DNA of 27,945 nt, from IMG/VR virus record IMGVR_UViG_2695420817_000020. The stretch is one strand, 5' to 3'. The translations under genes were made by a program, and so were the position numbers. The notes under the pieces were generated by a model. The model was not told the origin of the DNA. It was given only the letters and a program-made list of their open reading frames with translations, and made no database searches. This document shows, piece by piece, positions 22,109 through 27,569 of the stretch (the first letter of the stretch is position 1; every line of letters starts with the position of its first letter). The DNA is from a virus. Lineage: Duplodnaviria > Heunggongvirae > Uroviricota > Caudoviricetes.

Positions 22109-22882
22109 ATGCATCGTATAGACACGAAAACCGCGCAGAAGGATAAGTTCGGCGCGGGTAAGAACGGTTTTACCCGTGGTAACCCCCAGACTGGCACGCC
22201 TGCCACCGATCTGGATGATGACTACTTTGACATGTTGCAGGAGGAGCTTTGCAGCGTTGTGGAGGCATCCGGTGCCAGCCTGGAGAAGGGGCGGCATGAC
22301 CAGCTGCTTACCGCGCTTCGTGCGCTGCTGTTAAGCCGCAAGAATCCGTTTGGCGATATCAAATCGGATGGCACGGTGAAAACAGCTCTCGAAAACCTTG
22401 GTTTGGGAGAAGGTTCGGCATTACCCGTTGGTGTGCCTGTTCCATGGCCTTCAGCCACACCGCCAACAGGCTGGCTGAAATGCAACGGTGCGCCTTTTTC
22501 TGCAGAAGAATACCCGGAACTGGCAAAGGCTTATCCAACAAATAAATTGCCTGATTTACGCGGTGAATTCATTCGCGGCTGGGATGATGGGCGCGGGGTG
22601 GATGCTGGTCGAGATTTGTTATCATCTCAAGGGGATGCAATAAGAAATATAACTGGAGGATTTAATATCAGACCTGGATCGAGCAGTGCTTTGATTACTT
22701 TCGCTGCTGGTGCTCTTAAAGTAGCATCAAGAGTTCAAAGTGCTTATGTCACAAACACTTCAGCCACTGACAAAATTGCTGAAGGTATAGACTTCGATGC
22801 CAGTGCTGCTCCTGGAGTTGTAACTGCATCTGAAAACCGTCCAAGAAATATCGCGTTTAACTACATTGTAAGGGCAGCATGA
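22109..22882 (+). CDS. Tail fibre protein (constant N-terminus plus variable C-terminus in the current orientation)
   Basis: 257 aa. A recombination crossover site lies about 97 codons in. Followed by a tail-fibre assembly gene. Confidence 0.8.
22386..22411. repeat. Invertase crossover site (gix/hix/pix-like), left, inside the tail fibre gene
   Basis: 26 bp CTCTCGAAAACC TT GGTTTGGGAGAA. The inner half-site is a perfect inverted copy of the inner half-site at 24244-24255. Confidence 0.75.
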
Positions 22883-23898: not shown

Positions 23899-24257
23899 CT
23901 ACCGTCCTATCGAAATATAACTGAATCTGTATTGCTGTGAGATATCACTGGTTGCCACACGCCACGCTGAATTACTGATATGTTCAAAATTTACAGACAA
24001 AACCTGCGGGGCAGGATTCGACGGGGCTGACTGAACGGCATCAGACATAACACTGACTGAAACCATCGGCTGATTAGGGAATGGTATAGGGAAGTGTCCA
24101 CTGATAAAGCGGGTCGTGTTTCCTGAAAAAGTGCCAAACTGAACAATATATCCACCTGGTAGCCTGAACCATCCCGAACCAGAAGCGAATGCTCCCATAT
24201 CCGGTATCTGATTATCTCCTGTGCCCACATCCCTTTTCGCCGCTTCTCCCAAACCAA
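23899..24257 (-). CDS. Alternative tail fibre C-terminal segment (S'-like); no own start, expressed only after inversion
   Basis: Minus-strand frame is open from the right crossover core to 23899. After inversion it joins in frame to the constant N-terminus (…ENLGLGE + AAKRDVGTG…). Confidence 0.7.
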
Positions 24258-24269
24258 CCTTTCAAATAT
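24244..24269. repeat. Invertase crossover site, right, just upstream of the invertase gene
   Basis: 26 bp TTCTCCCAAACC AA CCTTTCAAATAT, closely resembling hix/gix-type sites. Confidence 0.75.
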
Positions 24270-24328: not shown

Positions 24329-24892
24329 ATGATTTACGGGTATGTTCGTGTATCAACAAATCATCAGGATACAGAGTTGCAACGTCTTGCACTTGAGTCA
24401 GCTGGCTGTGAGCGAATTTATGAAGAATATGCCAGTGGCAGAACAGCTAATCGCCCTGTGTTAAAGGAATTAATTACGGTGATGAAAAGTGGAGATGAGT
24501 TGATTGTCTGGAAGTTAGATCGGATAGGGAGAAATGTGCTGCATGCGCTATTGATGTTTCAAAATCTGCACGAAAAAGGTGTTAATTTTCGGAGTATTAC
24601 AGATGGCGTAGACCTGAAAACAGCAAGTGGTCGCTATAATTTCCGTAATATTCTTTCTGCTGCGCAGTATGAATCTGATTTGAATAGCGAGCGAACTTTA
24701 GCTGGTTTGGCTATTGCCAGATCCAAAGGCCGGATTGGTGGGCGTAGACCGAAGTTTAGCGACGAGCAGTGGCAACAGATGGGAGCGCTCATAGCGGCAG
24801 GGAAATCACGGCGTTATGTTGCACGTATCTATAACGTTGGGCTATCAACCCTATATAAACGATTTCCTGTTACTGGCATTCAAACGAAATAA
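24329..24892 (+). CDS. Site-specific DNA invertase, serine recombinase (Pin/Gin/Hin family)
   Basis: 187 aa. N-terminal catalytic motif YVRVST, ...WKLDRIGR..., C-terminal helix-turn-helix (LSTLYKRF). Adjacent to the invertible tail-fibre segment. Confidence 0.9.
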   Translation: MIYGYVRVSTNHQDTELQRLALESAGCERIYEEYASGRTANRPVLKELITVMKSGDELIVWKLDRIGRNVLHALLMFQNLHEKGVNFRSITDGVDLKTASGRYNFRNILSAAQYESDLNSERTLAGLAIARSKGRIGGRRPKFSDEQWQQMGALIAAGKSRRYVARIYNVGLSTLYKRFPVTGIQTK

Positions 24893-24932
24893 TTTAAAAG
24901 CAATTTAAAGAGTTATTTGTCTAATGTTGGAA

Positions 24933-24968
24933 GCCGCAGCCACGTCGTATGCAAGAACGTGCTGCGGC
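24933..24968. terminator. Hairpin between convergent invertase and DinI-like genes (possible bidirectional terminator)
   Basis: GCCGCAGCCACG ... CGTG-CTGCGGC stem of about 11 bp with one bulge. No strong T-run on either side. Confidence 0.35.
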
Positions 24969-25035
24969 TGGCTGGCGAACTTTCGATAGTGCGAGTATTG
25001 AATGATTTCCAGCCGTTACCGATTTTACGTGTTAA

Positions 25036-25284
25036 TTAGTGAACAAACCACTCGTCAGCAGATTCCCAGGTATCTTTCAGAGTCTCCTGAACAAAAGTTT
25101 TTGCAGAATCCTTATCTGCGGTGCGTGTAACAGAAAGGCCATCGTTGCTGGTGGCTTTTACGATCACCTCTACATCGTCATAACGTTTACTGATGCGTCG
25201 GGTTAATTCTTCCTTTAACGCATCCACAGCACCGGTTGGCATTTTAGTCATTTTTTCTTTGGCTATGCAGATTTCAATACGCAT
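25036..25284 (-). CDS. DinI-family protein (SOS-inducible RecA modulator homologue)
   Basis: 82 aa. MRIEI.IAK...P.GA.DAL..EL..RI...TWESADEWF resembles E. coli DinI. Two LexA boxes in its promoter. Confidence 0.8.
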
Positions 25285-25297
25285 AAAAGTCCCTCTA

Positions 25298-25349
25298 TAC
25301 TGTGTTTGTATACAGTATTATTTTTAACTGTATGGATAAACAGTGTCAA
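25298..25349 (-). promoter_or_regulatory. SOS promoter with two LexA boxes upstream of the DinI-like gene
   Basis: TACTGTgtttgtatACAGTA (25298-25317) and aCTGTatggataaACAGt (25327-25344), both CTGT-N8-ACAG. On the minus strand a perfect TTGACA -35 lies at 25344-25349. Confidence 0.7.
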
Positions 25350-26443
25350 GAGGTCTTATTTCTGCTCCTTTGGAGCTCTTCAAAACGATTATGTAAAGAT
25401 TTCGGATACAGTTCGGTATATACCTGCCATAGCACGTTTAATGAACGATGCCCTGTAACCTGGGCGACTTCCTCAATACTAAAACCAGCCTCAAATAAGC
25501 GACTTGCCCCTTCTCTACGCAAATCATGGTATCGCAGATCTTTAATACCTAATTTGCTTCTTACCCTCTGGAATCCCGCAGTAACAGAAGTGCTGTTATA
25601 TGGAAAAATGAATTCTGATTTTTTGGGTTGTCGTTGGACGATATCCCAGGCTTCCCCAAGCAAGGCTACTTTCATATGGTTGCCTTCCTTTTTACGTGGA
25701 TCTTTCCTGTCTCTTACGAGTATGGATTTTTGTTCCTGATCGAGATCCTCCCATCGTAATCGGCATACTTCACCGATTCGCATACATGACCACACAGAAA
25801 ATTTGAGGATATCAACGAACGGAATTTTTGAGCATTTATGTGTAGATCGTTGTTGAAGACCTTCAATGAGCATGTCCAGTTCATCAGATGCCGGTCTACG
25901 ATTACGACGATTTGATTTACCAATTAAACCAAGTTTAAGTAGATATGGACGAGCGGCTTTTGCTGGGTTTGATGTGTAATTAATTCCATATACAGGTTTG
26001 GCAGCATCCAGAACACTGCCAAGATAACTAACATCGTGGCTAACTGTAGCTGGACCTGCACCAGCGTTGTTTCTTAGCCTGCAATGTTCAATTACGTCAT
26101 TTTCTGTCAGTTCAGATAGTTTGATCGCGGAGATGTCACTATCCATAAGCAGTTCCAGCACATATCTTTTAGTACGGCCTGCTTTACCTCCGGCATTTGG
26201 GTCATTTAAATATTTGTGTAGTAAGTCACGGACTGTAAGTCCGTCAACTGCATTTGATGATGGAATGCCATATAGATCTAATTCCATCACTTTCTGTGTG
26301 CCCCATGTTTTGGCATGAGCATGTTTAGGGAATGTTTTGCTTTCCCTGTAAGTGATAACACCTTTTTCTTTGATAATCACATTACAGCGATAGCGTGGTG
26401 TGCCATCGGATTTTAGTCGTTTCTCTATGTTATAGTACGCCAT
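25346..26443 (-). CDS. Tyrosine-type phage integrase (dusA-associated)
   Basis: 365 aa. C-terminal catalytic region (...YHDLRREGASR...GHRSLNVLWQVYTELY). GAGG RBS. Divergent from dusA, 88 bp away. Confidence 0.9.
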   Translation of the reverse strand: MAYYNIEKRLKSDGTPRYRCNVIIKEKGVITYRESKTFPKHAHAKTWGTQKVMELDLYGIPSSNAVDGLTVRDLLHKYLNDPNAGGKAGRTKRYVLELLMDSDISAIKLSELTENDVIEHCRLRNNAGAGPATVSHDVSYLGSVLDAAKPVYGINYTSNPAKAARPYLLKLGLIGKSNRRNRRPASDELDMLIEGLQQRSTHKCSKIPFVDILKFSVWSCMRIGEVCRLRWEDLDQEQKSILVRDRKDPRKKEGNHMKVALLGEAWDIVQRQPKKSEFIFPYNSTSVTAGFQRVRSKLGIKDLRYHDLRREGASRLFEAGFSIEEVAQVTGHRSLNVLWQVYTELYPKSLHNRFEELQRSRNKTS

Positions 26444-26531: not shown

Positions 26532-27569
26532 ATGCACGATAATCATGAAACACAAAAAATTAATCAAACCAGCGTGATGCCTGAAAAAACTGGTGTTTAC
26601 TGGAATTCTCGGTTTAGCATTGCTCCTATGCTTGACTGGACGGACAGACATTGCCGTTATTTCCTGCGTCTGCTTTCCCGCAATACGTTGCTGTATACCG
26701 AAATGGTGACCACAGGGGCGATTATTCACGGTAAAGGTGATTACCTGGCGTACAGTGAAGAAGAACATCCGGTAGCGTTGCAACTCGGGGGTAGCGATCC
26801 GGCGGCGCTGGCACAGTGTGCGAAGCTGGCAGAAGCGCGTGGATATGATGAGATCAACCTGAATGTCGGCTGCCCGTCTGACCGGGTGCAGAACGGCATG
26901 TTTGGTGCGTGTCTGATGGGTAATGCGCAGCTGGTTGCCGACTGCGTGAAAGCGATGCGCGATGTGGTGTCGATTCCGGTGACGGTGAAAACGCGTATTG
27001 GCATCGATGATCAGGACAGCTATGAATTTCTCTGCGATTTCATCAACACCGTTTCCGGCAAAGGTGAGTGTGAGATGTTCATCATCCACGCACGTAAAGC
27101 CTGGCTTTCTGGGTTAAGTCCGAAAGAAAACCGTGAGATCCCGCCTCTCGATTATCCGCGTGTGTATCAACTGAAGCGTGACTTTCCGCATCTGACGATG
27201 TCGATTAACGGTGGTATCAAGTCGCTGGAAGAAGCTAAAGCGCATTTGCAACATATGGATGGCGTGATGGTCGGGCGCGAGGCGTATCAGAATCCGGGTA
27301 TTCTGGCGGCGGTAGACCGAGAGATTTTTGGTTCCTCGGATACTGATGCTGATCCGGTGGCGGTAGTGCGCGCCATGTATCCGTACATTGAGCGTGAACT
27401 CAGCCAGGGTACGTATCTCGGCCATATTACCCGGCATATGCTGGGCTTGTTCCAGGGTATTCCTGGCGCGCGGCAGTGGCGGCGTTATTTAAGTGAAAAT
27501 GCCCATAAAGCGGGTGCAGACATTAATGTGCTGGAACACGCGCTCAAACTGGTGGCGGATAAGCGTTAA
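26532..27569 (+). CDS. dusA: tRNA-dihydrouridine synthase A
   Basis: 345 aa, TIM-barrel Dus motifs, near-identical over most of its length to E. coli DusA as I recall it. Followed by pspG as in E. coli. Confidence 0.9.

Follow-up and report, generated by a model that had tools for sequence, protein, structure and literature searches.

A gene of the DinI family that stands behind two LexA boxes at the end of a prophage raises the question of whether the phage carries an SOS-driven influence on RecA of its own, and of whether the site and arrangement of such a gene are in any way out of the ordinary. We addressed this question in the window, by which we mean the whole stretch of DNA analysed, 27,945 bases long. 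The part from 24900 to 25500 (601 bases tested) is 100% identical to ETEC H10407, and the window lines up with the prophage of that strain, which is essentially phage SKA5, with lambdoid early genes and a Mu-like contractile tail. The insertion site is the 5' end of dusA, and the integrase gene is divergent from the restored dusA.

The dinI-like gene (25036–25284, minus strand, 82 aa, ATG at 25284) lies between a gene for a Pin/Cin-like serine DNA invertase (24329–24892, plus strand), with which it is convergent, and one for a tyrosine integrase of the dusA-targeting type (25346–26443, minus strand), which is upstream of it and co-oriented; dusA, the chromosomal integration target (26532–27569, plus strand), marks the prophage end. 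The first-pass annotation had described two CTGT-N8-ACAG boxes over a promoter with a consensus TTGACA, directly upstream of a DinI homologue and between invertase and integrase genes, and both the coordinates and the features that it gave are correct. It had also proposed that the prophage carries a DinI under SOS control, and at the level of the sequence this stands up (operator quality, overlap with the promoter, conservation and alignment with DinI), but the significance that it attached to the location does not. Our reading is that the locus is very probably a self-contained prophage cargo cassette, or "moron", comprising a promoter under SOS control, a gene of the DinI family, a short 3' untranslated region (UTR) and a terminator hairpin. 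The feature reads as an already known, widespread and already annotated SOS-box/DinI cargo cassette, and the practical value of the analysis lies in the correct annotation, that of a standard SOS-inducible DinI cargo gene with nothing surprising in its sequence.

The promoter and its two LexA operators

The 27,945-base window has exactly two copies of the motif CTGT-N8-ACAG, against an average expectation of 0.25 from dinucleotide-preserving shuffles. The proximal box, CTGTATACAAACACAG (25300–25315), covers the predicted transcription start, and the distal box, CTGTTTATCCATACAG (25328–25343), fills the spacer that separates the −35 hexamer from the −10. From 25349 to 25282 the minus strand reads TTGACA-CTGTTTATCCATACAG-TTAAAAATAATA-CTGTATACAAACACAG-TATAGAGGGACTTTT-ATG. 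The −35 hexamer TTGACA (25344–25349, minus strand) is the consensus and contains the TGA stop codon of the integrase gene (25348–25346), and the predicted −10 hexamer TAAAAA (25321–25326, minus strand) follows at a spacing of 17 nt; an alternative −10, AAAAAT (25325–25320), would give a spacer of 18 nt. In a promoter scan, TTGACA with an A/T-rich −10 was the best promoter-like match of the region (10 of 12 positions), and the promoters annotated in mEp460 and VT1-Sakai are of lengths that agree with the 17-nt spacer. In either form (TAAAAA or AAAAAT) the −10 element of the dinI-like promoter is weak, and the transcription start is a predicted one, at about 25312–25314. The distal box occupies the whole 17-nt spacer, the proximal box begins 5 nt past the −10 hexamer, and a putative Shine-Dalgarno sequence, GAGGG (25291–25295, minus strand), is read 6 nt upstream of the ATG.

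Both boxes score well as LexA sites. Against the 20-nt LexA consensus, TACTGTATATATATACAGTA, the proximal 20-mer, TACTGTATACAAACACAGTA (25298–25317), matches at 17 of 20 positions and the distal 20-mer, CACTGTTTATCCATACAGTT (25326–25345), at 15 of 20; with up to three mismatches allowed, the proximal site is the sole match in the window, where none is expected. A scan in the style of the heterology index, with a matrix rebuilt from 29 known SOS boxes of E. coli and values that are approximate and indicative only, ranked the two sites as the best two 20-mers of the window (3.4 for the proximal and 5.2 for the distal, the third being at 11.8). With the same approximate matrix, the known SOS boxes range from 1.1 to 9.9 and that of chromosomal dinI scores 4.3, which places both putative operators within the range of bona fide LexA sites. 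A search for a LexA-controlled antirepressor found no further CTGT-N8-ACAG in the whole SKA5 genome, where the dinI pair stands alone.

Conservation of the operators

The upstream regions of the IMG/VR copies of the cassette fall into 21 distinct variants, every one of which has both boxes. When the 18 gap-free variants are compared, none of the 16 half-site positions varies, as against 13 of the 49 other positions between the −35 hexamer and the ATG (Fisher one-sided p = 0.016, for 18 close cassette variants). We also surveyed the upstream regions of 17 DinI genes, namely the window copy, 15 other phage or prophage homologues and the chromosomal dinI of K-12; the phage homologues came from E. 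coli, Klebsiella, Salmonella, Aeromonas and Yersinia, with protein identity down to 37%. A CTG-N10-CAG box is found 31–37 nt upstream of the ATG in 16 of the 17, the exception being Yersinia YeP1, which has no such box and has another ORF immediately upstream. The proximal box is kept at homologues of 37–70% protein identity in E. coli, Klebsiella, Salmonella and Aeromonas, as well as at chromosomal dinI.

The distal box is limited to the E. coli 82-aa subfamily (the window, mEp460, cdtI, Stx2c phages, PhiR12_5 and VT1-Sakai); in VT1-Sakai it is a CTGG variant, in BP-4795 it is degenerate and in Klebsiella P18-100 it is absent. This putative second operator, filling the spacer and specific to the E. 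coli 82-aa subfamily, is a small addition to the known picture. The palindromes might be chance matches or decayed sites with no regulatory role; however, two sites stand where 0.25 is expected, both within 44 nt and on a promoter upstream of a DinI gene, their scores lie in the range of bona fide operators even if the matrix is approximate, and their half-sites are invariant across variants and conserved across genera. The probability that they are meaningless is, in our estimate, close to negligible, and on the sequence evidence a chance origin is excluded for practical purposes.

A second alternative is that the LexA sites serve the integrase gene, either as a roadblock or terminator substitute or by coupling integration and excision to the SOS response. 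The geometry would fit such a role, in that the boxes begin 2 nt past the stop codon of int and both genes are read in the same direction. However, cdtI, Stx and VT1-Sakai phages have this promoter and its boxes with no integrase gene upstream. The boxes thus travel with dinI and not with int, which makes control of the integrase very unlikely, and being downstream of int they cannot repress its promoter.

The DinI-like protein

The gene product is, by its sequence, a DinI-family paralogue with a single domain, colinear with E. coli DinI. It matches Pfam PF06183 (DinI) at 70.9 bits against a cutoff of 24.2 (E = 1.1e-19, profile positions 1–63 of 63) and phrog_189, "RecA filament binding protein DinI", with E = 5.7e-31 (positions 71–149 of 151), and its residues 1–81 align with residues 1–79 of E. 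coli DinI (1GHH/7YWA, E = 3.7e-13). Identity to E. coli DinI is about 45%, judged by eye from the alignment. The motif TWESAD(D/E)WFV is conserved between the two proteins, and the C-terminal helix retains all five of its acidic residues (E67, D71, E74, D77 and E78, corresponding to E65, E69, E72, D75 and D76 of DinI). This helix is described as the RecA-binding, DNA-mimic surface by Voloshin et al. 2001, as cited in PMC3121763. The window protein is less acidic, with a net charge of about −2 compared with about −5 in DinI (counted from the sequence), and its effect on RecA could differ in degree from that of DinI. In the DinI-like proteins of the Stx2c (PV98-693) and Stx1a phages, the first helix contains a 4-residue in-frame duplication, AVDALVDALKEE, and the length is 86 aa.

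Chromosomal dinI (b1061) resembles the window gene in length class, in the N-terminal strand, in the acidic C-terminal helix and in having a LexA box over its promoter; it differs in having a single box, which overlaps the −10 hexamer, where the prophage gene has two, and in a 3' UTR and canonical terminator that are unrelated to those of the cassette. It is among the most strongly SOS-induced genes of E. coli (49-fold with AZT; PMC11228462). Tum of coliphage 186 is likewise a LexA-repressed phage gene with a DinI-like domain (discussed in PMC3121763), and PHROG 189 covers both. Tum is unlike the window protein in its length of 146 aa, of which the N-terminal part is an antirepressor domain and the C-terminal half is DinI-like. 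A fusion of this type was considered for the window and rejected: the 82-aa protein matches the DinI half of the PHROG profile alone, and is therefore not a Tum-type fusion.

Distribution and usual place of the cassette

The promoter and gene start are present in 1241 of 5426 complete E. coli genomes, or about a quarter, with up to three copies per genome, and the carriers include O157:H7 EDL933 and O104:H4. They are also present in 134 phage records, among them many Stx phages, mEp460 and cdtI. The integrase–dinI junction is shared with the siphovirus mEp460 and is covered to at least 80% in 637 complete E. coli genomes. The taxonomic spread is drawn from a tblastn search of phage records; a search of genome contigs with the single protein returned four near-identical loci.

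The claim that the location of the gene is notable is contradicted by the other carriers, since the usual site of the cassette is the att-proximal end of the prophage, after tail-fibre or cargo genes. It lies about 0.2–2.4 kb from the prophage end in Stx1, Stx2 and Stx2c phages, PhiR12_5, Klebsiella P18-100 and BP-4795, only 225 nt from the yehV attachment site in VT1-Sakai, and between cdtABC and the integrase gene in phage cdtI; its neighbours include cdt genes, the ends of Stx phages and different integrases. Because the att-proximal place is the norm, the position in the window is unremarkable, and the dusA-type integrase gene merely happens to be on that att side.

The implied novelty of the locus does not survive either. 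In AP000400.1 (VT1-Sakai), a "putative promoter of H0001 and H0002" is annotated at the homologous promoter and "LexA protein, putative SOS box" at the homologous proximal box, with H0001 named "DNA-damage-inducible protein I"; in JQ182728.1 (mEp460) the same promoter is annotated. These database records mark the proximal box only, and the distal box goes unmarked inside the annotated promoter. At 95–100% protein identity, VT1-Sakai H0001, mEp460_021, cdtI gp30 and CP-1639 dinI are the same gene as that of the window. The cassette is ordinary because it is common in E. coli prophages and has already been annotated.

The cassettes of Stx and other lambdoid phages share with the window the TTGACA promoter, both boxes, the 3' UTR, the hairpin and the place at the att-proximal end of the late region. 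The window copy differs from them in that it abuts, on one side, a dusA-type integrase gene that has its stop codon inside the −35 hexamer and, on the other, an invertase module, and in that it has lost the T-tract of the terminator. Further cargo on the same strand comes after the SOS-controlled dinI in some phages, namely ORF84, a "putative avirulence protein", in BP-4795 (248–1908 of the locus examined) and the YkgJ-like ORF H0002 in VT1-Sakai (1501–2106 of the locus examined). The arrangement suggests that these cargo or virulence genes may be co-transcribed from the LexA-controlled promoter.

Boundaries of the cassette and its 3' region

In a megablast comparison, similarity to unrelated lambdoid phages spans about 24934–25349, from the hairpin to exactly the −35 hexamer, and similarity to other phages stops at 24920–24934. 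The cassette has a promoter and a terminator of its own, the limits of similarity coincide with both, and this is so in otherwise unrelated phages, as is the mark of a moron; it moves among them as a mobile piece of the phage mosaic. The exact boundaries, as drawn from these alignments, appear to be a modest addition to the known picture. Downstream of the gene, a 3' UTR of about 69 nt (24967–25035, minus strand) is common to all copies of the cassette, which ends in a G+C-rich hairpin (24929–24966) that is likely a terminator and whose stem covaries among copies. A T-tract follows the hairpin in mEp460 and others; in the window copy it is missing, because similarity ends where the invertase module is joined on. 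Without it, transcription may continue past the hairpin and enter the invertase gene in the antisense direction.

The constancy of this 3' region leads to another alternative, namely that the cassette acts mainly through RNA, its 3' UTR being processed to an SOS-induced small RNA. There is a precedent in Klebsiella, where chromosomal dinI is LexA-bound in ChIP and the 3' end of its mRNA is cut to yield the small RNA DinR (PMC10907235). In the cassette, the 69-nt 3' UTR and the hairpin accompany the gene in every copy, and the region folds better than shuffled sequence (z = −2.7). The 3' UTR is, however, as variable as the synonymous codon positions (0.19 variable sites compared with 0.22, about an equal rate), and it has no sequence similarity to the 3' UTR of K-12 dinI. 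Its pairing with the ftsZ leader is no better than that of shuffles (193 of 300 as good), whereas the K-12 control stood out (8 of 300), which is weak negative evidence because the RNAduplex test is crude and poorly suited to sequences so long. Rfam gave no match in the cassette region at the gathering score, and none on the dinI strand even below it. Taken with the precedent, these results leave a main role through RNA highly improbable, and a cassette that acts through its protein is the reading that we retain. On the plus strand, the hairpin (24929–24966) is matched weakly in Rfam by the final 37 positions of CssrB, a small RNA of the Shigella chromosome (23.5 bits, where the gathering score is 76; E = 0.011 for a search of 551 nt). 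In Shigella prophages this shared hairpin, which may be bidirectional, might form the end of CssrB.

Comparison with the Gifsy prophages

[quoted passage not shown] 2011, PMC3121763). Gifsy DinI accumulates after mitomycin C (PMC3121763), and in a study of the SOS regulon the prophage dinI genes of Salmonella were induced 4.6- to 23-fold by nalidixic acid (PMC8072944). The Gifsy genes are like that of the window in that a prophage dinI lies behind a LexA box and a sigma-70 promoter, with a similar distance from the proximal box to the ATG. They are unlike it in their length (74–79 aa), their nin-region location, their single box and the genes that follow, a small antirepressor gene and irsA/DUF1367. 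An operon of the Gifsy type was considered for the window. No minus-strand ORF of at least 20 aa is present in the 143 nt between dinI and the convergent invertase gene, and the window cassette is therefore not such an operon. A Gifsy-type placement in the nin region was likewise rejected, the window gene being instead between the invertase and integrase genes at the prophage end. For the E. coli 82-aa prophage subfamily, our literature search found no LexA-binding, expression, transcriptomic or deletion data.

Proposed mechanism and prophage induction

The anatomy of the locus, its place in the DinI family, the conservation of its operators and the mobility of the cassette are read directly from the sequences compared. 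By analogy with these homologues and with the established biology of DinI and LexA, which suggest LexA binding, SOS induction and RecA binding, we propose that in the lysogen two dimers of host LexA would sit on the promoter, one in the −35/−10 spacer and one over the transcription start. LexA on both operators would bar RNA polymerase from the promoter, and the gene would be held tightly repressed. When DNA is damaged, RecA* would promote self-cleavage of LexA, both operators would be emptied, and the strong promoter, with its consensus −35, would fire. From the presence of two operators we infer tighter repression, and probably later release, than at the single-box chromosomal dinI. The 82-aa protein would then act like chromosomal DinI, its acidic C-terminal helix binding RecA filaments and stabilising them, and would restrain some co-protease reactions, classically the cleavage of UmuD. 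The outcome would be an extra dosage of DinI during the SOS response, added to that of the chromosome. Any effect of the cassette on prophage induction would be secondary.

At physiological stoichiometry, DinI mainly blocks the cleavage of UmuD rather than that of LexA or CI. This weighs against an alternative in which the prophage DinI chiefly sets the induction threshold of its own or of co-resident lambdoid prophages, damping or prolonging the RecA*-dependent cleavage of CI. Several observations are in line with such a role. The CI repressor, which is encoded outside the window and was read from the near-identical SKA5, has HTH_3 and Peptidase_S24 domains (the H10407 annotation calls it a LexA family protein) and is thus of the RecA-cleavable type, so that induction tuning stays within reach. 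Lambdoid and Stx prophages are enriched for the cassette, of which a genome often has several copies (up to three), and DinI modulates the co-protease activity of RecA according to Yasuda 1998/2001 and Lusetti 2004, as cited. [quoted passage not shown] This is the only related genetic test, and it was negative; no published test for the E. coli 82-aa subfamily was found. Altogether we consider a chief role in induction unlikely, and the preferred reading remains that of a cargo gene that would add to the DinI dosage of the cell. The literature that we searched contained no test of whether extra LexA-controlled DinI copies alter RecA* activity enough to affect CI cleavage, Stx-phage induction or SOS mutagenesis in strains with several prophages. 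If extra copies of DinI do affect RecA* in strains with several prophages, this would matter for the antibiotic-triggered release of Stx.

A LexA-like protein and other features of the prophage

The same prophage encodes a 108-aa protein that consists of the LexA DNA-binding domain alone (Pfam PF01726, E = 3e-19), with no S24 cleavage domain. Its gene (H10407 NC_017633.1, 4695509–4695835; SKA5 8484–8810, minus strand) belongs to the nin region, some 1.5 kb to the left of where the window begins, and is flanked by genes for a DNA methyltransferase and RusA. The recognition helix (RS.NAA.EHL) matches that of E. coli LexA. Such a protein would escape cleavage and could occupy SOS boxes, the two at dinI among them. 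We searched the literature for work on proteins of this kind, with the LexA DNA-binding domain only, and found none; the predicted protein is a modest addition beside the cassette.

A more elaborate scheme would join this protein to the cassette. In prophages with a RecA-cleavable CI, a DinI paralogue under two operators would be made only after deep depletion of LexA and would act as a timer of RecA*, stabilising or blunting it and so shifting the induction threshold of its own and of co-resident lambdoid prophages, those of Stx phages included. Once the lytic genes were on, the LexA DNA-binding-domain protein could re-occupy the SOS boxes, again with the dinI pair among them, and the phage would first exploit and then shut off the SOS response of the host. 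We regard such a circuit as distinctly improbable.

At the other end of the prophage there is a partial dusA fragment, about 4 kb from the chromosomal lexA-dinF operon, and this nearness is probably a coincidence. Next to the invertase gene, and served by the invertase, the window contains an invertible tail-fibre segment of the Mu G or e14 P type, bounded by 20-nt inverted repeats (22393–22412 and 24243–24262) that are 90% complementary. The repeats enclose alternative C-termini of the tail fibre and two opposed genes for its assembly.
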